The notes under the pieces are model-generated. The model saw only the letters and a program-made list of their open reading frames with translations, was not told where the DNA came from and made no database searches. Shown here piece by piece: positions 19,250 to 51,526 of a stretch of 64,000 nt of DNA. A program made the translations under genes and the position numbers. Numbering within the stretch: the stretch's first letter is position 1; each line of letters opens with the position of its first letter. Source of the DNA: Betaproteobacteria bacterium (lineage in GTDB: Bacteria; Bacillota; SHA-98; UBA4971); NCBI GenBank assembly GCA_050260395.1, contig JBLNCC010000124.1:5997-69996 (forward strand). The letters are read 5' to 3'.

Positions 19250-20221
19250 TCATCCGACGCCGTTGCGTGCCACCTGGCGGGCCTCCGCGCCCGTCCGGGC
19301 GGAAAACAGGGTAAAGAGCGCTATCCCCGAGACCACAAGAACGCCTCCCGCGACCGCGGTCGCAGGGGGTGTCTCTTTCAACAGCGCCATCGCCAGCAGG
19401 GTGGCGCCCACAGGCTCCCCCAGCACGCTCACGGATATCACGGATGCGCTCACGTAGCGGAGGGCCCAATTGAACACGGTGTGCCCGAGGATCGTGGGAA
19501 TCGCCGCAAGGGCGAGAAAAAGCAAGTAATCGCGGATGGGGTAGGAATAAAGGCGCGACCCGTGGACAAGACACGTGACGGCGAGGATGACGGTGCATAT
19601 ACCGTACACGACGAAGGCGTACGGCGCCACCGAAAGCCTTTGTCTCACCCCCCTGCCCACGATAACGTAACCCGCGAACATGAGAGCCGAAAGGACAGCG
19701 AGAAGGTCGCCAAAAAGCACCGACCCTCCGCCGGCCGAATCGCCGAGACCGATGACGGCCGACCCGATCACGGCACCCACCGCCCCGGCTACTGCCCAAC
19801 CAGAGACCCTCTCACCGAAGATAAGGCGGCTTGCGAGCATCACAAATAGGGGGTGCGTCTCCACGAGCACCGCCGAGCTCGCGACGGATGTGAGGGAGAG
19901 GGAGGTCATCCACGCCCCGAAGTGCACTGCGAGAAAGCCGCCGGCAAGGAGCGAGAGAGCGAAGTCCCTGCGCCCCATGGCCAACACTTCGCGCCCCCCG
20001 CCCGCAAGCACGAACGGCGCCAACATGAGCGTCGCAAGCCCCATTCTCCACGTGGCTATGACCAGAGGAGGCGCTGACGATAGCCGCACGAAAACCGACG
20101 CGGACGAGACCGCGACAACGCCTATGCCGATGGCGGCCCAGGGCGGAACCCAAGGCCGCTCGCGCGCGCCTAGCGGAAGCCCTGCTGAAGCCCGCGCCTC
20201 CCTTTCCCCCGTGGCACTCAT
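19250..20221 (-). CDS. EamA-family (DMT superfamily) transporter, 10 TM
   Basis: Two EamA repeats of hydrophobic helices. Confidence 0.6.
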   Translation of the reverse strand: MSATGEREARASAGLPLGARERPWVPPWAAIGIGVVAVSSASVFVRLSSAPPLVIATWRMGLATLMLAPFVLAGGGREVLAMGRRDFALSLLAGGFLAVHFGAWMTSLSLTSVASSAVLVETHPLFVMLASRLIFGERVSGWAVAGAVGAVIGSAVIGLGDSAGGGSVLFGDLLAVLSALMFAGYVIVGRGVRQRLSVAPYAFVVYGICTVILAVTCLVHGSRLYSYPIRDYLLFLALAAIPTILGHTVFNWALRYVSASVISVSVLGEPVGATLLAMALLKETPPATAVAGGVLVVSGIALFTLFSARTGAEARQVARNGVG

Positions 20222-20369
20222 GCGACATCACCCCAAAAGGAATCCCCGATCCCCTGCCACCGGCGTCGAAATCAGCGAGCGGCCCGCCGAGGCCTTGGGC
20301 GCGCTCCGCCCTGACGCGGTGACATAACGAGATCTCGTCTTCTCCAGCGCCCCGGCCCCCGCAGCCGCT

Positions 20370-21137
20370 TCACCCGCGAGCGCCTCGGTCGAGGCTCCCG
20401 CACGCGGGGCAGTTGGGGTCGCGCGCGGCGCTCACTTCGCGCCACGTCATGGCAAGCCCGTCAAACAAAAGCAGCCGTCCGACCAAGGCCTCGCCTATAC
20501 CTAGGATGATCTTGAGCGCTTCGAGAGCCTCGATGCTGCCCACCACCCCCGGCACCGCGCCGAGGATCCCCGCTTCTCTCGGCGACGGCACTGTGCCGGG
20601 TGGTGGAGGCGCAGGGAACAGGCACCGATAGCACGGCCCCTTGCCCGGGATGATCGTGAGCACCATGCCGTCGAACCTCAGCACCCCCGCCTCTATCAGA
20701 GGCTTGCCGGCCCTCACGCACGCGTCGTTCACCACGTATCTCGTCTCGAGGTTGTCTACGGCGTCGAGCACCACATCGTACGCCTCGATGAGCTGGGACG
20801 CGTTCTCGGCATTGAGGCTCATGCGGCAGGGAATCACGTGGACGCTGGGGTTCAATCGCCCGATCGCACGCCTCGCGGACTCAACCTTTGCGAGGCCCAA
20901 GTGGTTGACGCTGTGTAGGATCTGTCTCTGTAAATTGGAGACATCGACCACGTCGGAGTCCACCAAGCCCAGGGTCCCCACCCCGGCCGCCGCGAGATAC
21001 ATGGCTGCCGGCGACCCCAAGCCCCCGACGCCCACCACCAGGACCTTGGCCGCCCGGAGCCGTTCCTGGCCCGCCTCACCGATTTCGGGCATCACAAGCT
21101 GCCTGGAATACCGCATCTTCTCTTCATTGGTCAACAT
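20370..21137 (-). CDS. moeB: molybdopterin-synthase adenylyltransferase MoeB/ThiF family (E1-like)
   Basis: RYSRQLVMPEIGEAGQERL and GVGGLGSPAAMYLAAAGVG. C-terminal CxxC pairs. Confidence 0.8.
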   Translation of the reverse strand: MLTNEEKMRYSRQLVMPEIGEAGQERLRAAKVLVVGVGGLGSPAAMYLAAAGVGTLGLVDSDVVDVSNLQRQILHSVNHLGLAKVESARRAIGRLNPSVHVIPCRMSLNAENASQLIEAYDVVLDAVDNLETRYVVNDACVRAGKPLIEAGVLRFDGMVLTIIPGKGPCYRCLFPAPPPPGTVPSPREAGILGAVPGVVGSIEALEALKIILGIGEALVGRLLLFDGLAMTWREVSAARDPNCPACGSLDRGARG

Positions 21138-21242
21138 TTTCGCACCACCGGCCTATGCGCCAGCCCTGACGCGAGCCGGACCGAGCTGGGCTCGGTCCGG
21201 TCGCACTGTGGGTCTGGGTACCTTGGCGCCCCGCCTGGTCAT

Positions 21243-22742
21243 CTAGAGACAGCCCGATCTCTCCACCACCCGCCGGAGCGCCTTTGTAGCCTCGCGTATC
21301 ACTTCATCTTCGTCAAAGGCGAGGAGTTTCCTCCCGTACATAAGGACCCGCCCATCCACGATGGTGGTCTCCACGTCAGACGCGTTCGCCTCGTACACGA
21401 TCCGGGCTGTGACGTCCACACCATCTGCCGGGACCGCGTGGGGCGCCCGAAGGTTCAGGATCACGATATCGGCGCGCTTTCCAGGCTCGATGCTGCCGAT
21501 CTCGTCCTCCAGGCCCATTGCGCGCGCGCCGCCCATCGTCGCCATCTCCAGCACCGTAGGGGCAGGCAGCGCGGTCGGTCCGAGACGAACTTTCTGAATG
21601 AGCGCGGCGTGCCGCATCTCCCGAAACATGTCGAGGTTGTTGTTGCACGGAGCGCCGTCCGCCCCCATCGACACGAACATGCCCATCTCGAGCATCTCGG
21701 GCACCCTCGCGATCCCTGAGGCCAGCTTGAGATTGGACGACGGGCAGTGGACGACCTTCGTGCCCGAATCGCGCAGGATGGCCATCTCTTCATCGTCGAG
21801 CCAGATGCAGTGCGCAAGAACGAGGTTCTGCCCGACGAGTCCGAGCTCGCGGAGGCAAACGACGTTGCGCATGCCTCTGTCCTGCTGCACAAGCTCCACT
21901 TCGCCGCGGTTCTCCGAAGCGTGGGTGTGAACGAGCACGCCTGCGGCCCTCGCCATATCACGGACCCGCACGAGAAGCTGATCCGAGCACGACACGACAA
22001 ACCTCGGCGCGAAAGCGTAACGGATTCTACCGTCATCATGCATGTGCCACCGGTCGAGCAGCGCCTCGCTCTCACGAAGCGAATCCGGGGTGGATTCCTT
22101 GAGACTCGCGGGCACGTCGGAGCCGTAATCCATCATCACTTTCCCGGACGCGGCCCGGATGCCTGACGAGTCGATCGCCCAGAATGCGCTCTCGGTGTGG
22201 TGGACGGTCTCCATATCAATGATAGCCGTGGTTCCACCCTTGATAAGCTCGGCTATGCCGAGCATCGCGGACCAATAGACGCTTTCCTCATCGTGCGCGC
22301 CCTCGAGCGGCCAGATGCGGTTCCGCAGCCAGTCCAGGAGCTCGAGGTCGTCCGCCTGACCCCGAAAGAGCGTCTGACAGAGGTGCACATGCGCCTGGAC
22401 GAACCCCGGAAGCACGATCTTTCCCGCAGCGTCTATGACCATGTCCACGTCATGCCTGTGCACGCCCACGGGAAGCTCGTGAAACCCTGCGTCAGTCGGG
22501 CTCGAGCCGCATTCCTCGTTGCGGGCAATGTGCGCCGAACGTGCCTCGAGACCACCCGCCGCATCTGGATCTGGGCCCGGCCCGCCTCCGTCATTTGAAT
22601 GCCACCGCCCCCTGTGGCCTGACCCCGGCCAGACCACCTCGGCTATCCTCCTCCCGTCGATGAGGACGTCCGCGCCCTCCAGCACCTCTCGTCTACTGTT
22701 CATAGTGACAACGGTTCCGCCGCGGATGAGGATCTTCGCCAC
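21243..22742 (-). CDS. amidohydrolase (chlorohydrolase/guanine-deaminase/SsnA-like metal-dependent hydrolase)
   Basis: LPGFVQAHVHLCQ metal-binding His pair, HASE, and the D near the C-terminus typical of the TIM-barrel amidohydrolase superfamily. Confidence 0.7.
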   Translation of the reverse strand: MAKILIRGGTVVTMNSRREVLEGADVLIDGRRIAEVVWPGSGHRGRWHSNDGGGPGPDPDAAGGLEARSAHIARNEECGSSPTDAGFHELPVGVHRHDVDMVIDAAGKIVLPGFVQAHVHLCQTLFRGQADDLELLDWLRNRIWPLEGAHDEESVYWSAMLGIAELIKGGTTAIIDMETVHHTESAFWAIDSSGIRAASGKVMMDYGSDVPASLKESTPDSLRESEALLDRWHMHDDGRIRYAFAPRFVVSCSDQLLVRVRDMARAAGVLVHTHASENRGEVELVQQDRGMRNVVCLRELGLVGQNLVLAHCIWLDDEEMAILRDSGTKVVHCPSSNLKLASGIARVPEMLEMGMFVSMGADGAPCNNNLDMFREMRHAALIQKVRLGPTALPAPTVLEMATMGGARAMGLEDEIGSIEPGKRADIVILNLRAPHAVPADGVDVTARIVYEANASDVETTIVDGRVLMYGRKLLAFDEDEVIREATKALRRVVERSGCL

Positions 22743-24581
22743 CTACGCCACTCCTTTCGCTTCTATCCCAAGCGCCTCGATCTTCTCTCGGGTGGGCACG
22801 CCATCAAGAGTCCACCCGCGTCTGGAATAGTACTCGGGGAGCATCCTCGCCAGGTCCACTGTCACGCCTTTCGCGGGCCCTTCGGGGAGGCCTTCCGTCA
22901 GAAAACGCTTGGGAAGGGTATCGTCATCCGGCGTCATACCGCACCGCAGGTTGAAGATTCTTTCCGTATTAACGATCCTCTCGCCTATGGTAAGGAGGTC
23001 TGTCTCAGAGTAGCATCGCCCCATCGCAAATGTCAGAAGGTCCGCGACGTCCTTCGGCATGACGGCGTAAGTCGCAAACGTGCAGTACTTGCATATCTCG
23101 GCCGAGTCGCACACCGCGCCGTAGTTCTCATGCCAGATGACCATCGGGACCTTGCCGTTCTCGGTGTACGGGTTCACACAGTCAGGGCTCCCGAACCAAC
23201 GGACCCCTTCCTCCCTCGTCTTGCTAAGGAGCTCGAAGTTGGGAAGGGCGCGCAGGTGATCTCCACCCCTGCTTGCCACGGCTTCGCCCAGCGCAAAGCC
23301 CTTGCCAGTGCGCACGTCGAACGCCGGAAGCTCGAGCCCTTTCACGTGAAGGGCAAACCCCTCGCTGCCGGGGATCTCGCGAGACATCGCCTTCACGCCT
23401 TTTGCGAGGAAGGCCCCGATGCCGTCGCGGTAAGCGATCTTGCGGAGGCAATCGATGACGAAGTCCGCGTCGCCCCACTCGTATTTCTCGTCGATGAGGC
23501 CGCGCTGCGAGCATTCCATGAGGAACGCGATGCTCGTGCCGACGGATATGGTGTCAAGCCCGTAGTCGTTAGCGAGCTGATTGGCCTTGAGAATGGCTGC
23601 GAGAGACCCCACGCCCACTCTGGTTCCAAGCGTGACCATGGTCTCGTACTCTGGGCCCATGTTCTCGCACTCGTACGGCGCTGAGGTGACCCGGGCGTAG
23701 TTCTTGCAGTGCAGGATGCACGAGAAGCACGCTTTGGAAGCGAGCTTGTAGGTGTCCTGGTACACGTGGCTCGAGATCTTTTCGTAGTGCTCGAACAGGC
23801 CGAGCTGCCCGTTTCTCGTGGAAAGCCCGCCGCCCGCCTGGGCGATGTCCACAAGGATCAGCGTTCCGTACTCGGAAAAGTCCGCGTAGGTTGGATCGGC
23901 CATAAGCTTCCTGTGGCACTCCCGAACCTTCGCGAGGAACCTCTCATCGTCTGCCACCGGAATGTCGCCCGAACCGCGCACAGCAATGGCTTTGAGGTTC
24001 TTGGACCCCATGACCGCGCCCACGCCCGTGCGCCCAGCAGCATCGTGGCCGGCGGTCATGATGTTCGCGTACGGAACGAGGTTCTCACCAGCCTGGCCTA
24101 TGGCGATGACCTTGACGTCCCTCCCGTGCGTCTTCTCGAGGGCGCTCACGGTGTCGAACACGCCTCGTCCCCACAGGTGAGACGCGTCGCGCAGCTCCAC
24201 GTGGTCGTCATCGATGAACAGGTAGACCGGCCCCCTTGCCCTGCCTTCGATAATTACGGCGTCGTACCCGGCGAACCGGAGTTCAGGGCCGAAATGCCCG
24301 CCGGAGTTGGCGTCTCCGAGGAGCCCGGTGAGGGGCGACTTGCAGCCCACAGTGAACCTGCCAGAGGAGGGGGACAGAGTCCCGTCCAACGGGCCTGTGG
24401 CGATGGTCAGGACGTTCTGGGGCGACAGAGGGTCGACGTGAGCGTCAACAAGGTCGTAAAGCACTTTGGAAGTAAACCCGCGGCCTCCGAGGTAGCAGGA
24501 CTTCCACTCCTCCGGCACCCTGGTTTTGCGCGTCCGGCCGGCGGCGAGGTCCACCCAGAGCAACCTATCCATGTACGACAC
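22743..24581 (-). CDS. aor: tungsten-containing aldehyde:ferredoxin oxidoreductase (AOR family)
   Basis: N-terminal WVDLAAGRTRKTRVPEEW...YLGGRGF AOR signature, 612 aa. Confidence 0.8.
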   Translation of the reverse strand: MSYMDRLLWVDLAAGRTRKTRVPEEWKSCYLGGRGFTSKVLYDLVDAHVDPLSPQNVLTIATGPLDGTLSPSSGRFTVGCKSPLTGLLGDANSGGHFGPELRFAGYDAVIIEGRARGPVYLFIDDDHVELRDASHLWGRGVFDTVSALEKTHGRDVKVIAIGQAGENLVPYANIMTAGHDAAGRTGVGAVMGSKNLKAIAVRGSGDIPVADDERFLAKVRECHRKLMADPTYADFSEYGTLILVDIAQAGGGLSTRNGQLGLFEHYEKISSHVYQDTYKLASKACFSCILHCKNYARVTSAPYECENMGPEYETMVTLGTRVGVGSLAAILKANQLANDYGLDTISVGTSIAFLMECSQRGLIDEKYEWGDADFVIDCLRKIAYRDGIGAFLAKGVKAMSREIPGSEGFALHVKGLELPAFDVRTGKGFALGEAVASRGGDHLRALPNFELLSKTREEGVRWFGSPDCVNPYTENGKVPMVIWHENYGAVCDSAEICKYCTFATYAVMPKDVADLLTFAMGRCYSETDLLTIGERIVNTERIFNLRCGMTPDDDTLPKRFLTEGLPEGPAKGVTVDLARMLPEYYSRRGWTLDGVPTREKIEALGIEAKGVA

Positions 24582-24587
24582 CCGTCC

Positions 24588-25025
24588 TCACCTCGTTTTC
24601 AGGGCAAGGGCCCCGGTAGTGCAGAACTTCACGCACATAGGATCGCCGTGGCAGAGGTCGCAGACGAGAACGGTCCCATCGAATATGCGAACCCCGCCGG
24701 ACGGACACGCGGCGACGCACTCGCCGCACAGGTTACACGCGGCGTCGTCCACGAACACCTCCCCGTCGTCCCACGCGAGTGCCCCCCTCTTGCACGCCTC
24801 GACGCAAGGGTGCTCCGTGCAGTGGTTGCACACGTGGAGCTCTTCGCTACACCCGCGCCGGAGCACCTGTATGCGCGCCCGCTTCGGGTTGAACGCGCCG
24901 AAGTGCGCGATGGAGCAGGCAAGCTCGCAGTTCCTGCACCCGGTGCACTTCTCCGGGTTGAACACCCGGATGTCCATGTCGTTCCCGCGCCTCAGCACCT
25001 CGAGCATTTCATACCCTGAAGCCAT
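24588..25025 (-). CDS. 4Fe-4S dicluster ferredoxin-like protein (multiple CxxCxxCxxxCP motifs)
   Basis: Four CxxCxxC clusters. Start chosen at MASGYEM, which gives an ATGA overlap with the upstream hydrogenase stop. Confidence 0.6.
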   Translation of the reverse strand: MASGYEMLEVLRRGNDMDIRVFNPEKCTGCRNCELACSIAHFGAFNPKRARIQVLRRGCSEELHVCNHCTEHPCVEACKRGALAWDDGEVFVDDAACNLCGECVAACPSGGVRIFDGTVLVCDLCHGDPMCVKFCTTGALALKTR

Positions 25026-25026
25026 T

Positions 25027-26991
25027 TCATCGCGCACCTCCTCCCGCCGGTTTGACCGAAGCGCCCGTCGTGCCGGTTCCCCCGGCGGCCGGCGTACCCT
25101 CCGCGTGAGAGCCACCCGCACTTCGATCTGAGCTGTTGAGTTGAGCGGCGAGACGCACCGGGTCATGCAGGAGCTCTTTCGCCCGGCCCCCGCCCGACTC
25201 GCCCAGAAACCGCGCGTAAAGCTCGACGACACCCGGGTTTCGACGCGGGTATCGCTCCGCGATGGCTTGGTCGATAGCCCGCAGCGCCGCGCCCCGCAGC
25301 CGCTCGGGCCCGCCCTCCGCGCCCTCCTGGTTCATCGCGATCGGCTGACCGCCTCCACCTACGCAGCCGCCGGGGCAAGCCATCACTTCGACGAAGTCGT
25401 ATCGCCGCTTTCCCGCCGCCACGTCGTTCAATATCTGCCTTGCTGCCGCAAGCCCTTGGACCACAGCCACGCGCAAGGCAAGGTGGCCGAGGGTCACCGT
25501 CGCTTCAGCCACGCCTGGACCGGGAGGCCCGCTGACAACGCGTCCGTCCCCGTCCGCCTCAAGCCTCACCCCAAGCTCGTCCGCGAGCGCCCGGAGCGCC
25601 GCGTCCATGACCCCGCCCGTAGTGCCGAATATGGCCCCTGCGCCGCTTGCGCTCCCGAGGGGGTCATCGAATCCGCTCTCCTCTAGCGACTCCACGTCCA
25701 TCTCGACCGACTGAATCAGCCGAATGAGCTCGCGCGTGGTGAGGACCGCGTCGACATCGCGCAGTGCGCCCCGCATCCCCCCGGCCCCGTGGTCTGTGCC
25801 GTCGTCCGAGGCTCCAGGCGCTTCCGGGCCTAGCCCTCCTTTCCTCGCGGCCTCGAACTTCTTCGCTGTGCACGGCATCACGGACACGACGTACACGTCC
25901 TCCGGGGCCACGCCCTCGGCCTCGTGGATCACCATCTTTGCGACGGCTCCAGCCATCATGTGAGGCGACTTACATGTTGAAAGGTGCTCAGTGAGGTCGG
26001 GATACTCGGTCTCCACAAACCTCACCCACGCGGGACAACACGAAGTGAACATGGGTAACTTTCCGCCTGTTGCCAGGCGTTGCCTTAGCTCGTGCGCTTC
26101 CTCGACCGCCGTGAGGTCCGCCCCGAACGCCGTGTCGAACACCCTGTCGAACCCGAGCTTTCGCAGGGTGGCTACCATGAGCGTCGTGGAGACCGTCCCC
26201 GGCGGCTTGCCCCATGCCTCTGCGAGGGTAGCCCGGAGCGCGGGTGCCGTCTGAGCTACCATGAGGGTCCCGCGGTCCGCGAGCTGGCGCCTCACCTTAA
26301 CCAGTTCCGACCTCTCCGAGAGTGCTCCAGTGGGGCACGCGACCACGCACTGCCCGCACTCCACGCACCGCGTCGCCGCCGCTCTGTCCTCGAAGGCGAG
26401 CGAACGGCACCGCGCCCACTCCTCGCCCAGGACCCCGCGCGGCCCGGTCCGCTCGATGATGCCGCGGGCCTCCTCGACCTCGGCGGCCAACGACTCATGA
26501 GGAACGATGCCGTGCATCTTCATGCACGCCGCGACGCACCTTCCACACATGATGCACTTGTTCGGATCGCGGACTATCGCTTGGCCCGTCCTGTCCACCG
26601 TAAGCTTCTGCCGCCTCACAGGGAGCCTGCGAACACGCACGCCGAGCTCGTCGCCAAGCGCCTTCAGCTCGCAGTATGCCCTCCGCTCACACACGAGGCA
26701 CTCTCCGGGATGCTGGGCCAAGAGGAACGTCACTACCTCGCGGCGCCTTGCCACCACCCTGTCCGTCGCGGTACGAATGACCATGCCCGGCTCCACAGCA
26801 TGGTCGCATGCGGTCACCAAATCGTCCCTGCCCTCCACCTCGACCACGCACACTCCACACCCCGCGCCGCGCTCGATCCATGGATGGTGGCACAGCGTCG
26901 GCACCCGCGCTCCGGCGCGCCTCGCGGCCTCCAGGATGGTCGTCCCCTCGGGCACACAGCACGCCCGACGGTCCACCAAGACCTCCAGCAC
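25027..26991 (-). CDS. hydA: [FeFe]-hydrogenase catalytic subunit (HydA, monomeric CpI-like M3 architecture: 2Fe-2S, accessory 4Fe-4S clusters, H-cluster domain)
   Basis: H-cluster motifs L1 TSCCPAWV, L2 MPCTAKKFE, L3 EVMACPGGCVGGGGQP. Start set at GTG preceded by GGAGGTGAGG; ORF is open back to 27144. Confidence 0.8.
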   Translation of the reverse strand: MLEVLVDRRACCVPEGTTILEAARRAGARVPTLCHHPWIERGAGCGVCVVEVEGRDDLVTACDHAVEPGMVIRTATDRVVARRREVVTFLLAQHPGECLVCERRAYCELKALGDELGVRVRRLPVRRQKLTVDRTGQAIVRDPNKCIMCGRCVAACMKMHGIVPHESLAAEVEEARGIIERTGPRGVLGEEWARCRSLAFEDRAAATRCVECGQCVVACPTGALSERSELVKVRRQLADRGTLMVAQTAPALRATLAEAWGKPPGTVSTTLMVATLRKLGFDRVFDTAFGADLTAVEEAHELRQRLATGGKLPMFTSCCPAWVRFVETEYPDLTEHLSTCKSPHMMAGAVAKMVIHEAEGVAPEDVYVVSVMPCTAKKFEAARKGGLGPEAPGASDDGTDHGAGGMRGALRDVDAVLTTRELIRLIQSVEMDVESLEESGFDDPLGSASGAGAIFGTTGGVMDAALRALADELGVRLEADGDGRVVSGPPGPGVAEATVTLGHLALRVAVVQGLAAARQILNDVAAGKRRYDFVEVMACPGGCVGGGGQPIAMNQEGAEGGPERLRGAALRAIDQAIAERYPRRNPGVVELYARFLGESGGGRAKELLHDPVRLAAQLNSSDRSAGGSHAEGTPAAGGTGTTGASVKPAGGGAR

Positions 26992-27351: not shown

Positions 27352-27446
27352 TAACGCCTTGGAGCGCTATAGTTAGTGTCTTATGAATATTCGGCGGAAA
27401 CCTCGGCACTCCTCCCTACCCCGCCGCAGCGGTCAACGACCCGCGC

Positions 27447-28838: not shown

Positions 28839-28856
28839 AACTCTCTCACCTTTCCG

Positions 28857-42178: not shown

Positions 42179-42254
42179 GCAACACTAGCTCTCTCAGAAA
42201 GAGAAACGAAGACTCATAGCCCCATGCTCAGCCTACCGGGGCGAGCGAGCGTGC

Positions 42255-43823: not shown

Positions 43824-44347
43824 CTTGGCTCAGGGCCGGCGCCGCCCTTTTCTTCCCCGAACGCACCCGGGCTTCCGGAACCCCCGCCGCGCCCCGCCTC
43901 CCGGAGAGCCGCCGCCGCTCTCTCGATCGCCTTCACTATCTTGGCATATCCAGTGCACCTGCAGAGGTTGCCTGATATCGCTCGCCTGATCTCGTCCTTG
44001 GTCGGCGAGGGCTCGGCATCCAGTAACGCTTTTGCTGACATGATCATCCCTGGGATGCAAAACCCGCACTGCACGGCGCCTTCGGCGACGAACGCCTCCT
44101 GGATCGGGTGAAGCTTGCCGTCGCGCTCGAGGCCTTCCACGGTCACGACGTCCTTCCCGTCCGCCTGATATGCCAGCATAAGGCAGGAGTTGACAGGCCT
44201 CCCGTCCACGAGCACCGTGCACGCGCCGCACTCGCCCTTGCCGCACCCTTCCTTCGTGCCGGTGAGGCCGAGGTCATCACGCAGAAACTCGAGCAGGGTC
44301 CGCGTCGCGGGGATATCGGCCGTGACCAGGCGACCGTTCACGCGCAC
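43820..44347 (-). CDS. xanthine dehydrogenase-family [2Fe-2S] small subunit (second copy)
   Basis: GCGKGECGACTV. Start set at GTG after GAGG (M-RVNGRLV); ORF is open back to 44455. Confidence 0.75.
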   Translation of the reverse strand: MRVNGRLVTADIPATRTLLEFLRDDLGLTGTKEGCGKGECGACTVLVDGRPVNSCLMLAYQADGKDVVTVEGLERDGKLHPIQEAFVAEGAVQCGFCIPGMIMSAKALLDAEPSPTKDEIRRAISGNLCRCTGYAKIVKAIERAAAALREAGRGGGSGSPGAFGEEKGGAGPEPR

Positions 44348-44623
44348 GTTCACCTCGAGCGTCGTCCTCGGCCCGAGAGCGGGCCTCTCTCCCGGCCCCC
44401 GCGCATCCCCCGCATCATCGCGATGGCCGACCGCATCACAACGCACACCCGCCACTCGACATCACCGACCCTTCATGAATCATTGCCGTGCAGTGCCAAG
44501 CCTTATGGCCGCCCCCGGGGCACCAGGCCAAGCCTTGGTAGATCGCCGGAAGCTCGCGCCGCTTTTCAGCATATGAGCTGCGCCCTGCTCGAACCTGTCA
44601 GGTGCGAGCGCTCACGGGCACCC

Positions 44624-45885: not shown

Positions 45886-47124
45886 TTAGAAGGATCGCTC
45901 CGTTACCTGCCTGTACACCGTCGGAAACAGAGCATAGAACATGGCAGACCTCACGAGATGCTCCACGCTTACTTGATCGTCCACGGAGTGAGAGTGCCTC
46001 TCCTCGCCCGGCCCGAACCCGATTGTAGGGATGCCGAGCCTCCCCATGGTGGCGGTGCCGTCGGTCGAAAACACCCATTTGCTCGTGCGGGGCTTTTCGC
46101 CGAAGAGCGACTCAGCGCACTTCACGCCCGCCTGCACCAGAGGGTGGTCCTCCTCCAGGACCCACGTGGGGAAATACTTCTCCCAGCTCCGCCTGTATCC
46201 TGTGTAGCTCGGCGAATCGTACGTGAGCAGGCCCACATCCGCGTCTTCGGCCCCGGGCAGCGACCGGATCTCCTCGATGGATGACTCGGTGGTCTCGCCC
46301 ACTGTCATCCGTCTGTCCACGTAGATCGTGCACTCATCTGGCACGACGTTGAGCGAGCCGGTCTTGCACTCGATGGACGTCACGGCGATGGTCCCGCGCC
46401 CAAGGAACGGGTCGTCTTTGAGCCTGCCATTGAGATCCTCGATGCCCGCCACTATAGGCACCATCTTGTAGATGGCGTTCACCCCGCGCGCGGGAGCGCT
46501 CGCGTGGCACGACACGCCCTTCGTGGTCACTTTGATTTCACACCGGCCGCGATGCCCGCGGTTTATCTGCAGGCTGGTGCACTCGCCAAGCACCACGCAC
46601 TCCGGTTGAATCCCTTGAGTGGTGATCATCTCGTGGACGGCCCACCCGTCGCAGTCCTCTTCTTGCACCACTCCGGCGACGTGCAAGGTGACGTCGTCGG
46701 GAAGGAGTCTCAGGTCTGTCATGACGCGCGCGCCCCACACCATGCAGGCGATGGCAGCCTTGTTGTCAGACGCGCCGCGTCCGTATACAACGCCGTTTTC
46801 ATACTTGCCCTGGAACGGGTCCCACTTCCACGCGGCGCGGTCTCCCACGCCCACCGTATCGATGTGCGAGTCGTACAGGATCTTGCGACGCCCCGACCCC
46901 ATCGTGCCGATGACGTTGCCGATGGCGTCCACCTTCACGTCATCGAACCCGGCCCTTTCCATCTCAAGTCGGATCCGGCAGATACACTCGCCTTCATTCG
47001 TGCTGGTGCTCGGTATCGCGATTAGCTCTCGAAGAAACGTGACGATGTTCTCCCTGTATCCCTCCACAGCCTCCCTTATCTTCGTAGCTTGTTCCCTGTC
47101 CGCGCTGGCGCCGCCCAAACTCAT
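45886..47124 (-). CDS. M20-family peptidase/amidohydrolase (YgeY-like; ArgE/DapE/ACY1 family)
   Basis: HIDTVGVGD, GASDNKAA, and the E-E and H metal ligands typical of M20 dimetallohydrolases. Confidence 0.75.
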   Translation of the reverse strand: MSLGGASADREQATKIREAVEGYRENIVTFLRELIAIPSTSTNEGECICRIRLEMERAGFDDVKVDAIGNVIGTMGSGRRKILYDSHIDTVGVGDRAAWKWDPFQGKYENGVVYGRGASDNKAAIACMVWGARVMTDLRLLPDDVTLHVAGVVQEEDCDGWAVHEMITTQGIQPECVVLGECTSLQINRGHRGRCEIKVTTKGVSCHASAPARGVNAIYKMVPIVAGIEDLNGRLKDDPFLGRGTIAVTSIECKTGSLNVVPDECTIYVDRRMTVGETTESSIEEIRSLPGAEDADVGLLTYDSPSYTGYRRSWEKYFPTWVLEEDHPLVQAGVKCAESLFGEKPRTSKWVFSTDGTATMGRLGIPTIGFGPGEERHSHSVDDQVSVEHLVRSAMFYALFPTVYRQVTERSF

Positions 47125-48509
47125 CCCTCCTCCGCCCTTCGCTCCCCAGGCGCGGCCGTAACGAACCGGCCCCAACCGGGAGCTCCAACGAACTGATCAT
47201 TCCTGCACACGACCCTGCCTCGAACCATCGCCATTCTGGGCCAGCCCTGTACCCTCCTTCCCTCATAAGGCGTGTATCCCGCCTTTGAGTGAAGCTCCGG
47301 CGCGCTGATCGTGCGGACGCACCCGGGGTCGAATATCACGATGTCCGCGTCAGAGCCCGGGGCGATCGTCCCTTTCCTCGGAAACAGCCCGAACAGCCTC
47401 GCCGGGTTGTATGAAAGCATCCTCACCATGTCGCGGAGGCTCATGCCCCGGCGCACAACCCCCTCGTGATGAACAAGAGGCAGCAACGTCTCGACTCCAG
47501 GGATTCCGGGAAGCACATCGAAGCACGTCTCGCCGAAGGCCTTCTGGTCCCGCGTGAACGCGCAATGATCGGTGGCGATGACGTCGATCTCGCCGCCAAG
47601 AACGGCGTCCCAGAGCGCAGCTGTATCCGCCGCTTTTCGGAGCGGTGGCGTCATGATCAGCTCACGCGCCATGTCGCCTGAGTATTGCTCGGACGTAAGC
47701 AGAAGGTAATGGGGGCACGTCTCCGCGTATACCGTGTATCCCAATCGCCGAGCCTCACGAACCGCGTGGAGGCCGGCCGCGCTGGACACGTGGACGAAGT
47801 ACACGGGAATCCCGAGGGCGCCGAGGCTCGCGGCCACTTTCCTTATGGCTGCCGCCTCGGCCTCCGACGGGCGGGACTCGGCGTGGTGCGCGGGCGATGT
47901 CCTGCCTTCCGCCCGGAGCGCGGACTCGATCGCCTCCACGGTATCATTGTCCTCGGCGTGAACCGTCACCAGGAGCCCGGCGTTCTTCGCCGCCTCGGAC
48001 ACCGCCAGGAAGTCCGCGTCATCAAGGAGGTAACCCGCGGCACGGTAAGTCGTGAAGAGCTTGACCGCCCCGATGCCCATGCGGGCGAGCGCCGCGGCCT
48101 CGGCCTCGATGTCGGAGGGCACGTTCGTGATGGTCATGTGCAGGGCGAAGTCCACCGACGCCACGGCCGCCGCCTCGTCGATACGCGCCCGGGCGGCGCC
48201 TGCCATCGAAGCCCCTGCAACCTGGTCGGCGAAGTCGATGACGCAGGTCACGCCGCCGGACGCTGCCGAACGCATGCCCGACGCGAAGTCGTCGGCAGTA
48301 ACCGTCCCACGAGAGCGGAGGGCGAAATGGGTGTGCGCGTCTATGACCCCGGGGAGCACGTAACTGCCCGACGCGTCGAGGACCACGGCCTCCGGTGTCC
48401 GGGGCAAACCCTCGCCCACCGAGACGATCTTGCCTCCGTCCACCGCCACATCCGCGCGGAACTCCCCTTCGGCGGTCACCACGAGTCCCCCCACGATGAG
48501 GAAGTCCAT
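47121..48509 (-). CDS. D-hydantoinase/dihydropyrimidinase (cyclic amidohydrolase)
   Basis: VLPGVIDAHTHF, carboxylated-Lys region, 462 aa. Confidence 0.8.
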   Translation of the reverse strand: MDFLIVGGLVVTAEGEFRADVAVDGGKIVSVGEGLPRTPEAVVLDASGSYVLPGVIDAHTHFALRSRGTVTADDFASGMRSAASGGVTCVIDFADQVAGASMAGAARARIDEAAAVASVDFALHMTITNVPSDIEAEAAALARMGIGAVKLFTTYRAAGYLLDDADFLAVSEAAKNAGLLVTVHAEDNDTVEAIESALRAEGRTSPAHHAESRPSEAEAAAIRKVAASLGALGIPVYFVHVSSAAGLHAVREARRLGYTVYAETCPHYLLLTSEQYSGDMARELIMTPPLRKAADTAALWDAVLGGEIDVIATDHCAFTRDQKAFGETCFDVLPGIPGVETLLPLVHHEGVVRRGMSLRDMVRMLSYNPARLFGLFPRKGTIAPGSDADIVIFDPGCVRTISAPELHSKAGYTPYEGRRVQGWPRMAMVRGRVVCRNDQFVGAPGWGRFVTAAPGERRAEEG

Positions 48510-48569: not shown

Positions 48570-49505
48570 TCAGCGCGATATCCTCGTGCCGCTCCGGCCA
48601 TCGAGCGCCTCCAGGCACTTGTCGAGGGACGTGATTATCGCGAGCCCGCCGGACGAAGCGAAGTTTATGGACGCTTGCACCTTGGGGCCCATGCTGCCCG
48701 CCTTGAAGTGTCCCTCGGCCATGTGACGTCTGGCTTCCTCTATGGTCATGCTGTCGAGAAAGACCTGTGATGGGGTGCGGTAGTTGAGCGCAACCTTCTC
48801 CACGTCTGTCAGGATGAGCAACACATCCGCACCGATGTCCGTTCCCAGCTTAGCGCTGGCGAGATCCTTGTCGATGACCGCCTCGACGCCGCGTAGCGTG
48901 TCTCCTTCCTTGATAACGGGGATGCCGCCGCCGCCCGCAGCGATGACCACCTCTCCCCTGTCGAGGAGGCTCTCGATGGCACGCCTCTCGAATATCTGAA
49001 CAGGAAGCGGCGACGGGACCACCTTGCGCCAGCCGCGGCCGGCGTCTTCCTTCCACACCTCACCCCGCTCTGTCATGAAGCGCTTCGCCTCTTCCTCCGA
49101 GTAGAACGGGCCGATCGGTTTGGTCGGATTCGCGAAAGCGGGATCGACGGGGTCCACCACCACTTGCGTGAGCACTGTGACGACCGAGGCCCGCAGACCC
49201 TCGCGGACGATCTCGTTGTGCATGGCCTGCTGGATCATGTAACCGATGAGACCTTGGCTCTCAGCTCCGCACACGTCGAGCGGCATCGCGGGGACGATGT
49301 CGCGCGCGCTGTGGTTTTGGATGAGGATGTTCCCGACCTGCGGACCGTTGCCGTGCGTGATGACTACCCTGTGACCCCTTTTCAGAAGCTGAACGATGCT
49401 CCGGCACGTGGACCTGACGTTGTTCATCTGCTGCTCGGCGGTGCCCTTCTCGCCGGGCTTCAGAATAGCGTTGCCCCCAAGCGCCACAACGATCGTCGTC
49501 CGCAT
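48570..49505 (-). CDS. carbamate kinase
   Basis: MRTTIVVALGGNAIL N-terminus, amino-acid kinase family, 311 aa. Confidence 0.85.
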   Translation of the reverse strand: MRTTIVVALGGNAILKPGEKGTAEQQMNNVRSTCRSIVQLLKRGHRVVITHGNGPQVGNILIQNHSARDIVPAMPLDVCGAESQGLIGYMIQQAMHNEIVREGLRASVVTVLTQVVVDPVDPAFANPTKPIGPFYSEEEAKRFMTERGEVWKEDAGRGWRKVVPSPLPVQIFERRAIESLLDRGEVVIAAGGGGIPVIKEGDTLRGVEAVIDKDLASAKLGTDIGADVLLILTDVEKVALNYRTPSQVFLDSMTIEEARRHMAEGHFKAGSMGPKVQASINFASSGGLAIITSLDKCLEALDGRSGTRISR

Positions 49506-49631
49506 GTCGTCCTCTCCTCCCCCGGATGACCGGTCCGCGGTCCTCTCCCCTGTTGCCGAGAGCCACGGCCCGCCCGAATTTGGTCCATCCGTTCCCCGCC
49601 TGCCGCTGCCGCTCCCGAAATACGGAGCCTG

Positions 49632-50174
49632 TCAGAACTCCGGCGGCGTGATCGCGGAGATGAAAACGAGGTCCTTGTTGCCGACGCTCGTGATCTTGTG
49701 CGGGATAGCGCAATAGTAGTAGATGCTGTCGCCTTCCTCAAGGTGGTAGCGCTCATCCCCCACCTGTATATCCATGGCGCCCTGTAGCACCACGGTACAT
49801 TCCTCGCCAGGATGCGCCAGGGGCTCCTCGCAAGTTGAAGTGCCGGGCTTGAGCGTCGCCATCATGACCTCCATCTGTCTGTTAAGGTCGGGCGACAGGA
49901 GCTCGAACGCCAAGTGGGACCGGGGAAACTTCAGTGTCTTCCGGCTGTCCTTCCTCACCACGGGGCTATAACCGTCCGAATCGAGGAGAAAGTAGAATAT
50001 GGGCACATCGAGTGCCTCAGCGATCTTGCGCAGCGACGTAATGGACGGCTCAGCCACGTCTCTTTCGACCTGGCTCAAGAAACTCGCTGTGAGCCCCGTG
50101 AGCGCGGCGAGTTCGCTCAGGCTCTTCCCCTGTTCCCGGCGCTTTTCGCGGATCTTTTTACCGAGCAACATCAT
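49632..50174 (-). CDS. XRE-family HTH transcriptional regulator with C-terminal cupin sensor domain
   Basis: HTH_3 (KSLSELAALTGLTASFLSQVERD) plus a cupin beta-barrel. Confidence 0.75.
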   Translation of the reverse strand: MMLLGKKIREKRREQGKSLSELAALTGLTASFLSQVERDVAEPSITSLRKIAEALDVPIFYFLLDSDGYSPVVRKDSRKTLKFPRSHLAFELLSPDLNRQMEVMMATLKPGTSTCEEPLAHPGEECTVVLQGAMDIQVGDERYHLEEGDSIYYYCAIPHKITSVGNKDLVFISAITPPEF

Positions 50175-51526
50175 TCCCCCTGCGTCAGAAGGTCGCCTGC
50201 GCGCGCCCCGAGCACCCGCTCCAACTCTTCGATGGCCGGACCGACCTCTATGGGAGGGGGCGCAGCCCGCTCAGCGTTGGCGATGTCTTTGAGCCCGTTG
50301 CCGGTGGCGATGATGACAACCGTCTCCTCACGGTCTATGACGCCGCCCTCGAAAGCGGCGATAAGGCCCGCGAGGCTAGCGGCTCCGGCTGGCTCGCTGA
50401 ACACGCCGGTTGTCGACCCGAGCAACCTCATGGCGCGGAGGATCTCGTCATCCGTCACGGCAACCATGTTACCGCCGGACTCGCGCACGGCGTTCAGGGC
50501 CTTCGTCGGGTTGCGAGGCACCCCCACCGCTATGCTATCGGCCAGGGTGTTCTCGGGCCACGGCCGGAAGCGGTCGGCGCCCGACTTGAACGCCTCCACA
50601 ATGGGCTGGCATCCGGCGGCTTGGACGCCGAGGATGCGCGGAATTCGCGTTATGAGGCCGGTCCTCCAAAAGTCGTGGAAACCTTTGTACACACCGGCTA
50701 TGGTGCAGCCGTCGCCGACCGAGACCACCACCCAGTCGGGGACTCGCCACCCGAGCTGCTCGCATATCTCGAAGCTCACGGTCTTCTTGCCTTCGACGAG
50801 GTATGGGTTGATTGCAGCGTTGCGGTTGTACCAGCCCCACTTGTCAATGGCGGCCGCCGAGAGCAAGAAGGCGTCGTGGTAGGAGCCGTCTACGGAGACG
50901 ACCGAGGCACCGTACATGAGCAGCTGCATGAGTTTGCCGCGGGGAGCCCGCCTGGGCACGAAGATGCACGACCGCAGGCCCATCGACGCGGCGCACCCTG
51001 CGAGCGACGAGGCGGCGTTGCCCGTGGACGCGCAAGCGACGACGCGCCGGCCGGCCGCCTTCGCGCGGACGGCCGCGATGGCCGACGCCCGGTCCTTGAG
51101 CGACGCCGTCGGGTTCACCCCTTCGTCTTTCACGAAGACGGAGCGCGCCCCGAGGGCGCGGGCAAGGCGATGCGCGTCATAGAGCGGGGTCCACCCGATC
51201 CGAAGCGGCGGCCTCTCCCAGGCTGGGTCAACGGGCAGGAACGCCGCGTAACGCCACATGGAATCCTCGCCGGCGGCAAAGACCTCGCGGCCAGCGTCGC
51301 ACCCTTTGTCTCCGCCTATCCTGCGCGCGATGGCGTCGTAATCGTACACCACGTCCAGAATGCCCTGGTTGCCGCAGGATGGGCATGTGAGCGCCCAGCC
51401 TCCGCAGCTCTCGTGCTCCACGACCGCGCCACACGTCGTGCACTGAAGATGCTTCACATGGTCCAACTGCGGTCCCCCTGGCATCTCCCCGGAATGGCTC
51501 AAGCCGCTCCCTGCATGAATCGTCAC
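50171..51526 (-). CDS. threonine-synthase-like PLP-dependent enzyme with N-terminal Zn-ribbon
   Basis: NPTASLKDRAS lysine motif and CTTCG...CPSCG ribbon. Confidence 0.6.
   Translation of the reverse strand: MTIHAGSGLSHSGEMPGGPQLDHVKHLQCTTCGAVVEHESCGGWALTCPSCGNQGILDVVYDYDAIARRIGGDKGCDAGREVFAAGEDSMWRYAAFLPVDPAWERPPLRIGWTPLYDAHRLARALGARSVFVKDEGVNPTASLKDRASAIAAVRAKAAGRRVVACASTGNAASSLAGCAASMGLRSCIFVPRRAPRGKLMQLLMYGASVVSVDGSYHDAFLLSAAAIDKWGWYNRNAAINPYLVEGKKTVSFEICEQLGWRVPDWVVVSVGDGCTIAGVYKGFHDFWRTGLITRIPRILGVQAAGCQPIVEAFKSGADRFRPWPENTLADSIAVGVPRNPTKALNAVRESGGNMVAVTDDEILRAMRLLGSTTGVFSEPAGAASLAGLIAAFEGGVIDREETVVIIATGNGLKDIANAERAAPPPIEVGPAIEELERVLGARAGDLLTQGE

Follow-up and report, generated by a model that had tools for sequence, protein, structure and literature searches.

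A candidate reductive uric-acid pathway and an adjoining riboswitch-led hydrogenase module in an uncultured high-GC Bacillota bacterium

We analysed a stretch of 64,000 nucleotides (contig JBLNCC010000124.1 of assembly GCA_050260395.1, positions 5,997 to 69,996; hereafter the window) with a GC content of about 63%, in which 26 consecutive genes, all on the minus strand, extend from position 19250 to 51526. As judged from its genes and their arrangement, the conserved core of this string, 24 kb in length (27447-51526), probably specifies anaerobic breakdown of uric acid by a variant of the reductive pathway via 2,8-dioxopurine, the host being an uncultured high-GC member of the Bacillota. We assign to this reading a probability of about 0.7, and classify the cluster as a variant form of that known route and not as an undescribed pathway. 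The last 8 kb (19250-27144) contain genes for a hydrogenase, a ferredoxin, an aldehyde:ferredoxin oxidoreductase (AOR), an amidohydrolase, MoeB and an EamA transporter, and a purine riboswitch aptamer (27265-27368) lies in front of them. An annotation made previously from the DNA letters alone, referred to here as the sequence-only reading, had taken the whole as one 32-kb xanthine-catabolic unit. Each gene that it named was recovered with Pfam and NCBIfam models where it had placed it, and its assignment to the purine-catabolic clusters of the ygeW-ssnA-xdh type is borne out by equivalog-level matches of SsnA, YgeY, HyuA and carbamate kinase, by synteny and by the purine riboswitch in the locus. 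The single unit is not upheld, as the last 8 kb are a riboswitch-led separate module that only the closest relatives possess and that a relative with 88% SsnA identity already lacks. Neither the riboswitch nor the genes for the hydrogenase, ferredoxin, AOR, amidohydrolase and EamA transporter had been mentioned.

It was not until 2025 that the reductive uric-acid pathway was elucidated, in two bioRxiv preprints on Escherichia coli and gut clostridia (Li et al. 2025; Liu et al. 2025). Urate undergoes reduction to 2,8-dioxopurine by XdhD-YgfM in E. coli or by the fused XdhAC, termed 2,8-dioxopurine dehydrogenase (DOPDH), in Clostridium sporogenes, and a separate xanthine dehydrogenase (XDH) supplies hypoxanthine and xanthine as urate. 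YgfK then dearomatises 2,8-dioxopurine, a task that falls to the PF01180 protein UacX in Clostridioides difficile, whereupon SsnA and HyuA open the rings. One ureido group is removed through phosphorolysis by YgeW, with ATP formed via carbamate kinase, or through hydrolysis by UacY; the other is hydrolysed by YgeY, and YgeX turns 2,3-diaminopropionate into pyruvate. The committed intermediate is 2,8-dioxopurine formed from urate, not xanthine (Li et al. 2025; Liu et al. 2025). The window probably presents a different assembly of this pathway in environmental and bioreactor Bacillota, and draws attention to particular gaps in the scheme as published.

Gene content and conservation of the core

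The genes of the core that are assigned to ring reduction, ring opening, the final steps and regulation are listed below, with model scores given against the respective cutoffs.

28857-30185, minus strand: SsnA aminohydrolase, predicted to open the reduced purine ring, the pathway marker (TIGR03314, 640 vs 455.5; NF005540, 642 vs 444)
47121-48509, minus strand: HyuA equivalent, D-hydantoinase/dihydropyrimidinase, predicted to open the hydantoin ring (TIGR02033, 436 vs 393)
45886-47175, minus strand: YgeY-family M20 hydrolase, ureido-group hydrolysis (TIGR03526, 531 vs 321.5)
48570-49505, minus strand: carbamate kinase, YqeA equivalent, ATP from carbamoyl phosphate (TIGR00746, 440 vs 358)
44624-45616, minus strand: short YgeW-like carbamoyltransferase (330 amino acids vs 396 in YgeW; 38% identical to YgeW)
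37637-38842, minus strand: PreA-type subunit with flavin mononucleotide and 4Fe-4S centres, candidate 2,8-dioxopurine reductase (NF006183, 535 vs 335; PF01180)
40608-42185, minus strand: PreT/GltD-like subunit, flavin adenine dinucleotide (FAD)/NAD(P)H and 4Fe-4S (Fer4_20, Pyr_redox_2)
38935-40569, minus strand: M1-like gluzincin metallohydrolase (Peptidase_M1, E = 6e-8; HExxH motif, HETAH...E, and downstream Glu intact)
50171-51526, minus strand: ThrC-like fold-type-II pyridoxal phosphate (PLP) enzyme with an N-terminal CxxC...CxxC zinc ribbon (PALP, 269 bits; NF006050, 304.5 vs 303)
27447-28838, minus strand: CysK-like fold-type-II PLP enzyme of 463 amino acids with N- and C-terminal extensions, the last core gene (PALP)
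49632-50174, minus strand: PuuR-like regulator with XRE-type helix-turn-helix and cupin domains (HTH_3, Cupin_2)

SsnA, HyuA, YgeY and carbamate kinase are 37%, 36%, 46% and 49% identical to E. coli SsnA, HyuA, YgeY and YqeA, respectively; the true start of the YgeY-family gene probably lies near 47088. The carbamoyltransferase, which the sequence-only reading had named ygeW, is a short form. It has in common with YgeW the specific blocks WAYxPSYxKPxSVPQ, LMTRFGMDVTLAHP and VYPKSW, and lacks the DxxxSMG ornithine motif of ornithine carbamoyltransferases. Moreover, the short form stands in for YgeW beside YgeY and carbamate kinase at many other loci.

YgfK is not present at the locus, and the split PreA/PreT pair is found in its place. 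PreA lies 7.5 kb upstream of SsnA within one gene string and so matches, by the family-level definition of Li et al., the presence of a PF01180 reductase near SsnA; PreA is not a UacX orthologue. PreT is 37% identical to E. coli PreT and 33% to the central part of YgfK, and its true start is probably located about 75 codons inside the open reading frame (ORF). The GltD-like ygfT gene and the PreT-like gene of the sequence-only reading are one and the same gene (40608-42185). Its suggestion that a PreAT-like pair reduces the ring was right in kind, as this corresponds to the YgfK/UacX step, although such a step, then called not fully described, was published in 2025. The stop codon of preA overlaps the start of the gene for FAD_A, the FAD subunit of one of the two hydroxylases described below, and the FAD_A stop codon in turn overlaps the start of a MoaD-like gene by 4 bp. 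These overlaps indicate that the candidate producer and the candidate consumer of 2,8-dioxopurine are translationally coupled. This placement of PreA by the FAD_A, MoaD-like and Mo_A genes recurs in all relatives with an SsnA identity of 62% or more. The preA and preT genes are adjacent in two relatives (L005, L090; locus numbers with the prefix L denote the loci and contigs used for comparison), whereas the M1-like gene is situated between them in the window. Its absence from L005, L011, L020, L090 and L091 marks this gene as an insertion specific to the lineage. A side observation concerns Desulfosporosinus (L025, L026, L028, L034-L036, L040 and L046), where YgfK and a PreA-like PF01180 protein, 50-54% identical to PreA of the window, are encoded directly upstream of SsnA, which suggests two reductases or a YgfK-PreA complex.

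The stop codon of the ThrC-like gene overlaps the start of the XRE-cupin gene by 4 bp. The best match of the ThrC-like protein in the Protein Data Bank (PDB) is threonine synthase (2zsj, 253 bits), and those of the CysK-like protein are O-acetylserine sulfhydrylases (about 96 bits), with the PLP-binding Lys and the S/T-G-N carboxylate-binding loop retained. The ThrC-like protein is only 23% identical to YgeX, and the CysK-like protein gave no BLASTP match to it. We surveyed 52 non-redundant full-length SsnA loci with a reach of 10 kb. Both PLP genes were present in 17 of them, 10 without and 7 with YgeX, and in 5 further loci, all from the window's own lineage, the CysK-like gene directly follows SsnA. 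Likewise, 17 of 48 loci centred on the short YgeW-like gene contain the ThrC-like gene, often as a triad with the carbamoyltransferase and carbamate kinase. In the metagenome contigs L128, L130, L134, L156 and L157 this triad occurs with no SsnA within reach and may there belong to a related ureido-amino-acid pathway. PLP enzymes require a free alpha-amino group, which among the intermediates only albizziin and 2,3-diaminopropionate possess, and the pair is therefore placed at this end of the pathway. That the ThrC-like and CysK-like enzymes replace or bypass YgeX is a working inference only; YgeX could also be encoded outside the window. Neither protein is mentioned in Li et al. 2025 or Liu et al. 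2025, and the recurrence of the pair, also in loci without YgeX, suggests an undescribed terminal branch.

The core is conserved among relatives whose SsnA is 62-77% identical. Two of them (L090, L091) retain the order ThrC-like, XRE, carbamate kinase, HyuA, YgeY, ornithine carbamoyltransferase-like (the short YgeW-like gene), Fer2, MocA, XdhC, PreT, PreA, FAD, MoaD-like, Mo_A and Mo_B at about 60-85% identity, and L005, L011 and L020 retain the part from PreT through SsnA together with the CysK-like gene, down to 62% SsnA identity. Homologues of the XRE-cupin regulator (64-81% identical) adjoin pathway genes in L043, L049, L090 and L091. The nearest contig found is the bioreactor contig UPAD01000004 (L094), in which the carbamoyltransferase gene is 99% identical. 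All close relatives are metagenome-assembled genomes or metagenome contigs of uncultured Bacillota from bioreactors and other samples. The cultured relatives Moorella and Thermanaeromonas contain an SsnA that is only about 65% identical, together with XdhA-type and YgfK-type parts.

Gene content, family membership and synteny are direct observations, as are the riboswitch aptamer and its conservation, and the enzyme roles in the following flow were inferred from homology and gene context. The hydroxylase Mo_B/FAD_B/Fer2_B would oxidise hypoxanthine and xanthine to urate, and Mo_A/FAD_A/Fer2_A together with the MoaD-like protein would reduce urate to 2,8-dioxopurine. PreA/PreT would then dearomatise 2,8-dioxopurine in place of YgfK or UacX, after which SsnA would open the ring and HyuA the resulting hydantoin. 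The short YgeW-like carbamoyltransferase and carbamate kinase are predicted to use one ureido group for ATP formation, and YgeY to hydrolyse the second. Since YgeX is missing, the final step would fall to the ThrC-like enzyme, the CysK-like enzyme or both, which may turn albizziin or 2,3-diaminopropionate into pyruvate or a related three-carbon product. Cofactor maturation is assigned to MocA and the XdhC-like protein, and the XRE-cupin protein presumably regulates the core.

Two molybdenum hydroxylases and their cofactor

The core encodes two hydroxylases with molybdopterin, FAD and 2Fe-2S subunits, two proteins for maturation of the molybdenum cofactor and a small beta-grasp protein.

34071-36431, minus strand: Mo_A, molybdopterin subunit, candidate urate/2,8-dioxopurine dehydrogenase, DOPDH-like (neighbour-joining tree, Thr1078)
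36702-37640, minus strand: FAD_A subunit (FAD_binding_5, CO_deh_flav_C)
43820-44455, minus strand: Fer2_A, 2Fe-2S subunit, presumed partner of Mo_A/FAD_A (Fer2, Fer2_2)
31625-33994, minus strand: Mo_B, molybdopterin subunit, candidate xanthine dehydrogenase (match to bovine xanthine oxidase (XO), xanthine oxidoreductase (XOR) residues)
30741-31628, minus strand: FAD_B subunit
30211-30771, minus strand: Fer2_B, 2Fe-2S subunit
36478-36705, minus strand: MoaD/ThiS-like beta-grasp protein of 75 amino acids, between FAD_A and Mo_A (PF02597)
43200-43823, minus strand: MocA/YgfJ-type molybdenum cofactor cytidylyltransferase (NTP_transf_3; TIGR03310, 147, below the cutoff of 186)
42255-43187, minus strand: XdhC-family factor for insertion or maturation of the molybdenum cofactor (XdhC_CoxI, XdhC_C)

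In line with the sequence-only reading, there are two full sets, the 2Fe-2S gene of one of them being displaced; Fer2_A is located 7.4 kb away from Mo_A, and its position is identical in L090, L091 and L094. That reading had spoken of duplicated XDH trios. The two sets are about 40% identical, which indicates old paralogues and no recent duplication. Mo_A and Mo_B are about 30-33% identical to E. coli XdhA and XdhD, and neither is orthologous to them. With the models for XdhD (TIGR03313) and XdhAC (TIGR03311), Mo_A scores 559 and 305 and Mo_B 492 and 315, respectively, all under the cutoff. Mo_B matches bovine XO with 324 bits as compared to 217 bits for Mo_A, and the best PDB match of Mo_A is the selenium-dependent nicotinate dehydrogenase.

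A phylogeny was calculated by neighbour joining from 86 molybdenum subunits of 87 SsnA-centred loci and the E. coli references, a set of taxa that excludes Bacillus subtilis PucD and the XDH and DOPDH of C. sporogenes as anchors. The tree resolves four groups, namely XdhD, XdhA, Mo_B with a sister clade, and Mo_A with a clade of fused clostridial proteins. The C. difficile member of the fused clade reaches equivalog level with TIGR03311 (1649 bits), which identifies this clade as the DOPDH type. Bootstrapping of 40 representatives gave 77% for Mo_A with DOPDH, 83% for Mo_B with its sister clade, and 100% for XdhA with XdhD. Across the loci, one of XdhD and DOPDH/Mo_A is typically paired with one of XdhA and Mo_B-like subunits.

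Active-site positions were compared with residue numbers calibrated against the bovine chain; by this numbering, the conserved Arg of the "RGFG" motif in the molybdenum subunits corresponds to bovine Arg912 and not to Arg880.

Bovine 802 (Glu): mostly Asp in Mo_A (11/12), Asp in Mo_B, Glu in the fused DOPDH clade, Glu in the Mo_B sister clade
Bovine 880 (Arg): mostly Leu in Mo_A (9/12), Arg in Mo_B, Arg in the fused DOPDH clade, Arg in the Mo_B sister clade
Bovine 914 (Phe): Phe in Mo_A, Mo_B, the fused DOPDH clade and the Mo_B sister clade
Bovine 1009 (Phe): mostly Leu in Mo_A (11/12), Leu in Mo_B, Ile/Val/Leu/Thr in the fused DOPDH clade, Phe in the Mo_B sister clade
Bovine 1078 (Ala): Thr or Ser in Mo_A (12/12), Val in Mo_B, Thr in the fused DOPDH clade (24/24), Val in the Mo_B sister clade

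Mo_A of the window contains Thr at position 1078, and the A1078T/S change is the one that Liu et al. 2025 singled out in DOPDH. Mo_B retains the equivalents of R880, R912, F914 and E1261, and its sister clade possesses the complete set of XOR residues. Moreover, 27 alignment columns distinguish DOPDH from the canonical XDH-like clade, and in these Mo_A is more often DOPDH-like and Mo_B XDH-like. Residue E606 of XdhD (Li et al.) was discarded as a marker, since it sits in an XdhD-specific insertion with no counterpart in Mo_A or Mo_B. Taken together, these data tip the balance, though only modestly, towards a role of Mo_A in the step between urate and 2,8-dioxopurine and of Mo_B as the XDH; the preference is slight because the best hidden Markov model (HMM) of Mo_A is PucD and because Arg880 is lost. 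The idea of distinct substrates for the two hydroxylases was likewise right in kind, as it corresponds to XDH plus DOPDH, a combination that is no longer without description since the work of 2025.

The sequence-only reading had assigned the locus to the selenium-dependent type, which the window does not bear out. The TIGR03309 domain of YqeB, YqeC and SelD were not found among the annotated genes of the 64 kb. E. coli YqeB is a fusion of an XdhC-like N-terminal half and a C-terminal half that constitutes the TIGR03309 marker domain. The XdhC-like protein of the window is 35% identical to E. coli YqeB residues 3-253 (31-38% to XdhC-like parts of YqeB overall), and so corresponds to the N-terminal half only. 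As a control, residues 271-526 of E. coli YqeB matched TIGR03309 with 417 bits, and the XdhC-like protein matched XdhC models only. With the markers not in the window, selenium dependence is not affirmable from it; moreover, active-site residues do not distinguish selenium from sulfur enzymes (Liu et al. 2025). At several clostridial loci (L050, 17850-20790; L053, L087, L017, L024, L039), we observed that YqeB is split into adjacent genes for a TIGR03309-type C-terminal half and an XdhC-like half, next to yqeC.

The MoaD-like carrier between the Mo and FAD genes was confirmed at 36478-36705. The protein contains no Cys and ends in GGG; it reaches 34 bits with TIGR01687 (moaD_arch), below the cutoff, and the SAMP1 model is below the cutoff as well. 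Its gene occurs only in loci of the Mo_A type (11 of 87), always beside the FAD_A gene. In L020 (2577-3845) the C-terminus of the FAD subunit is fused to a MoaD-like domain via a low-complexity linker of about 70 residues, giving a protein of 422 amino acids that ends in GGG, and the stand-alone protein of L043 (9747-9980) ends in GGGGS. We know of no described counterpart of a ubiquitin-fold protein tied to a hydroxylase of the XO family. For tungsten-containing AORs, a closely linked MoaD gene, fused in Azoarcus, was read as enzyme-dedicated pterin synthesis (Iyer, Burroughs and Aravind 2006), and by analogy this is the default reading for the MoaD-like protein, too. Alternatively, it may be a structural subunit or a donor of sulfur or selenium to the molybdenum centre. 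Cotranslation with FAD_A, the fusion in L020 and the free Gly-Gly C-terminus are the grounds for a more specific proposal that we consider very unlikely, in which the protein would be more than an additional subunit of molybdopterin synthase. Once adenylated by a MoeB-type E1 enzyme, it would donate, as a thiocarboxylate or selenocarboxylate dedicated to this hydroxylase, the terminal sulfido or selenido ligand of molybdenum, and would in this lineage stand in for YqeB/YqeC.

The riboswitch-led module and its surroundings

The elements downstream of the core are as follows.

27265-27368, minus strand: aptamer of a purine riboswitch of the guanine type, within the leader of the hydrogenase operon (RF00167, 45.9 bits vs gathering threshold 37; full model, 1-102)
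25027-26991, minus strand: group A [FeFe] hydrogenase, M3-type, GTG start at 26991 (Fe_hyd_lg_C, 294 bits; TIGR02512, 426 vs 406)
24588-25025, minus strand: poly-[4Fe-4S] ferredoxin, YgfS/HydN/AorA-like (36-37% identical to YgfS and the N-terminus of YgfT)
22743-24581, minus strand: AOR-type aldehyde:ferredoxin oxidoreductase, tungstopterin family (AFOR_N, AFOR_C; 500 bits to Pyrococcus furiosus AOR 1aor)
21243-22742, minus strand: MtaD/DadD-family aminohydrolase, predicted purine deaminase (NF005557, 665 vs 522; 31% identical to GuaD)
20370-21137, minus strand: MoeB-type adenylyltransferase without a rhodanese domain (ThiF, 290 bits; NF004281, 299.5 vs 266)
19250-20221, minus strand: EamA/DMT transporter with two EamA repeats, the last gene of the module

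The riboswitch lies within the 302-nucleotide gap between the stop codon of the CysK-like gene and the longest hydrogenase ORF, about 270 nucleotides upstream of the GTG at 26991. The aptamer forms a three-way junction with J2/3 = GUUUCUACC and J3/1 = GCUA, a C at the specificity position and the equivalents of U51 and C74; neither the U51G change nor the insertions of the xanthine-II variants are present. It is near-invariant in L001, L003, L009 and L013, though leaders and flanks diverge, and absent in relatives without the module. A conserved segment that follows shortly downstream can pair with the P3 region and the 3' strand of P1, so that a long competing hairpin is predicted, and one compensatory change was observed. 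The layout resembles ON switches such as pbuE but has no U-tract, and the switch may be of the ON or the OFF kind. A consensus scan revealed no useful promoter- or terminator-like site near the riboswitch that would define the expression platform, and a relaxed-threshold Rfam search of 19000-52200 revealed no second riboswitch (no molybdenum cofactor, NMT1/xanthine-I or other motif).

A custom covariance model detected related aptamers upstream of an xdhA-type/ssnA operon of Moorella (L007, L033) and of a Mo_A-type operon (L043). Altogether, purine-riboswitch-like aptamers were noted in the SsnA loci L007 (5686-5757 and 14796-14869), L033, L022, L006, L015, L018, L043 (3575-3647) and L067 (8711-8787); one of these aptamers precedes a Bmp/ABC nucleoside transporter. 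Their presence in several SsnA loci indicates that predicted riboswitch control of such catabolic clusters is recurrent, and the unusual element is the hydrogenase as the first putatively controlled gene.

All three H-cluster motifs of the hydrogenase (TSCCP, PCTAK and EVMACPGGCVGG) are intact. The hydrogenase, ferredoxin, AOR and amidohydrolase genes follow one another at distances of 0-6 bp, indicating a single transcript. A homologue of the aminohydrolase (68%) adjoins SsnA in L043. Homologues of MoeB (50-54%) are encoded between ygfK and an XdhD-like gene in L038, L042 and L047, and neither a search for GG-terminal ORFs nor jackhmmer revealed a MoaD-like ORF beside them. From its distribution among relatives, the module is a recent accretion that is probably regulated separately and that the pathway can do without.

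Four electrons are taken up for each urate degraded, and E. coli depends on formate via YgfT/AegA for this purpose. Since the ferredoxin of the module resembles YgfS and the N-terminus of YgfT, the most likely role of this second operon (27368 to 19250), present in the closest relatives only, would be that of a purine-triggered redox valve, in which the guanine-class riboswitch drives the hydrogenase, AorA-like ferredoxin, AOR, deaminase-like, MoeB and EamA genes, and uptake or release of H2 via ferredoxin balances the four-electron urate pathway. In addition, the operon may feed aminopurines into the pathway. If control of the hydrogenase by the riboswitch holds true, purine sensing would be tied directly to H2 metabolism, which would also suggest an answer as to the physiological electron donor by which urate is reduced.

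The core ends upstream at position 51526. The next gene (51713-53017, plus strand) encodes 434 amino acids with a coding-type profile of GC at the third codon position (GC3) and no Pfam or NCBIfam match; by eye, a thioredoxin-like motif (CPSC) and a membrane domain resembling that of CcdA/DsbD, with GINPC, are discernible in its product. Long plus-strand ORFs over the cluster (e.g., 27588-30296, 902 amino acids) were rejected as antisense high-GC artefacts, as their GC content peaks at codon position 1 and that of the real genes at position 3; likewise, the long antisense ORF at 18101-19231 (minus strand) has its peak at position 1 and is an artefact, not a gene. A SCIFF system is encoded at 53129-54861 on the minus strand, comprising a radical-SAM maturase (TIGR03974, 547 bits vs 425) and, directly upstream of it, the six-Cys precursor ORF (54688-54861), which contains GGCKECQASCQSACKTSCTVGNQVC. 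As SCIFF is a hallmark of Clostridia, this fits the assignment to the Bacillota. On the other side, a separate plus-strand cluster (11141-19219) converges on the end of the purine locus; it encodes a PrpR-type sigma-54 activator, a LarA-like protein and the components TctC and TctA of a tripartite tricarboxylate transporter, as well as a tartrate dehydrogenase (TIGR02089, 533 vs 470). Three tandem tRNA genes are located at 746-1014 (minus strand).

Alternative readings and comparison with known systems

Several observations weigh against the proposed pathway. YgeX is absent from the window, where the best PALP protein (ThrC-like) scores 58 vs 276 on the diaminopropionate lyase model NF006058, and the proposed replacements are PLP enzymes without a known substrate. 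The carbamoyltransferase remains below both YgeW cutoffs (242 vs 453 and 225 vs 500), an NCS2-type urate/xanthine permease is not present at the locus, and the expression platform of the riboswitch lacks a U-tract. Moreover, PreA is closer to the PreA subunit of E. coli dihydropyrimidine dehydrogenase (44%) than to the UacX-type protein of C. difficile (32%). Together with the pass of PreA at its own equivalog (535 vs 335) and of HyuA at the dihydropyrimidinase model TIGR02033, this resemblance would suit a mixed nucleobase island, in which PreA/PreT, HyuA and the M20 hydrolase form a reductive pyrimidine pathway of the Pyd type and the hydroxylases and SsnA act separately on purines. We consider such an island unlikely, since SsnA needs a 2,8-dioxopurine reductase for which no other candidate such as YgfK is present, since PreA is translationally coupled to FAD_A, the MoaD-like protein and Mo_A and keeps this position to 62% SsnA identity, since a PF01180 reductase by SsnA is the published UacX variant, and since the M20 hydrolase is an equivalog-level YgeY and not a beta-ureidopropionase. 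Far more improbable still is a purine fermentation of the classical type known from clostridia, via xanthinase and formiminoglycine. A host that is an anaerobic member of the Bacillota and possesses enzymes of the XDH family would suit it, but the markers present are those of the SsnA/HyuA/YgeY/carbamoyltransferase route, and no gene of the glycine/formiminoglycine branch was recognised among the annotated genes of the window, in which no search was aimed at xanthinase or that branch.

Within the reductive pathway, the roles of the hydroxylases might be swapped or different, with Mo_A as a PucD-like xanthine/purine hydroxylase and Mo_B as the urate/2,8-dioxopurine enzyme, or with one of them acting on a non-purine N-heterocycle. 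The top HMM of Mo_A is indeed PucD (717 vs a cutoff of 784), a xanthine dehydrogenase of the B. subtilis type; the tree contains neither PucD nor a C. sporogenes reference; and Mo_A has Leu at the site of Arg880, where DOPDH, Mo_B and XOR have Arg. It is also Mo_B, not Mo_A, that is directly joined to SsnA, an adjacency that does not discriminate, as Moorella has an XdhA-type trio there. As the tree and the discriminating columns place Mo_A with the TIGR03311 DOPDH clade, as Thr1078 in Mo_A stands against Val in Mo_B, and as Mo_B is clearly nearer to the solved XDH/XOR structures, we regard this exchange of roles as possible but doubtful. A similar standing is given to the passenger view, by which the genes for hydrogenase, ferredoxin, AOR and MoeB came to lie beside the purine genes as a copy of the known mobile AOR/tungsten-cofactor cluster and play no part in purine catabolism, so that the riboswitch matters only for the deaminase and the transporter. 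AOR, 4Fe-4S ferredoxin and MoeB do form a sporadic cluster that has been described (Iyer 2006), and no pathway intermediate is an aldehyde. The module is missing in L010 (SsnA 88% identical) and in all more distant relatives, including L005, L011 and L020, and is thus dispensable for the pathway. The riboswitch, in turn, lies immediately upstream of the hydrogenase and is conserved with the module in four diverged relatives despite a variable leader, the 0-6 bp gaps speak for one transcript that includes the hydrogenase, and the pathway needs an external reductant for urate, to which the likeness of the ferredoxin to YgfS and YgfT would correspond. The passenger view is therefore rated as tentative, and a redox role of the module in reductive urate degradation is preferred.

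As compared to the E. coli cluster (ygeW-ygeX-ygeY-hyuA-yqeA ... ygfK-ssnA-ygfM-xdhD), the core has SsnA, YgeY, HyuA, carbamate kinase, a YgeW-like carbamoyltransferase, MocA and hydroxylases of the XO family with an FAD subunit in common. The E. coli cluster further contains YgfK, YgeX, the C-terminal domain of YqeB, YqeC and the sigma-54 regulator YgeV, none of which is present at the locus, where an XRE-cupin protein is found instead of YgeV. Unlike E. coli, the window encodes two three-subunit hydroxylases, the MoaD-like and M1-like proteins and two extra PLP enzymes. The selenium-dependent molybdenum hydroxylase neighbourhood (SelD/YqeB/YqeC; Liu et al. 2025) comprises the same SsnA, YgeY, HyuA, YgeW-like and MocA families, whereas its marker genes are not in the window. 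The version of C. difficile and C. sporogenes likewise includes a PF01180 reductase by SsnA, and Mo_A is sister to the TIGR03311 clade, with which it has Thr1078 in common. However, the clostridial DOPDH contains a fused 2Fe-2S domain and no FAD subunit, whereas Mo_A is unfused, has an FAD subunit and lacks Arg880; and PreA of the window, unlike clostridial UacX, has a 2x[4Fe-4S] tail and a PreT partner. This two-subunit architecture is that of E. coli PreAT, the NAD-dependent dihydropyrimidine dehydrogenase, from which the pair of the window differs in its purine gene context and its coupling to a molybdenum hydroxylase, the predicted substrate being 2,8-dioxopurine. A PreAT-type reductase may offer a simpler, two-subunit alternative to YgfK for the engineering of uricolytic probiotics.

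With the AOR-linked MoaD/MoeB tungsten-cofactor cluster (Iyer 2006), the downstream module shares AOR, 4Fe-4S ferredoxin and MoeB in one operon. There, MoaD is strictly adjacent to AOR, whereas the MoaD-like gene of the window lies beside FAD_A, 12 kb from the AOR gene, and the hydrogenase occupies the usual place of the pyridine-nucleotide-disulfide oxidoreductase. The riboswitch possesses the same junction as guanine-I riboswitches (RF00167; xpt type, and pbuE type for the ON logic), and the 3' half of its aptamer can pair downstream as in ON switches; it differs in that the first downstream gene encodes an [FeFe] hydrogenase and that a U-rich terminator tail is lacking. Taken together, what is new relative to these systems is the PreAT-type reductase, the three-subunit DOPDH-like enzyme with its MoaD-like partner, the recurrent ThrC-like/CysK-like pair instead of or next to YgeX, and the riboswitch-led hydrogenase/AOR operon.

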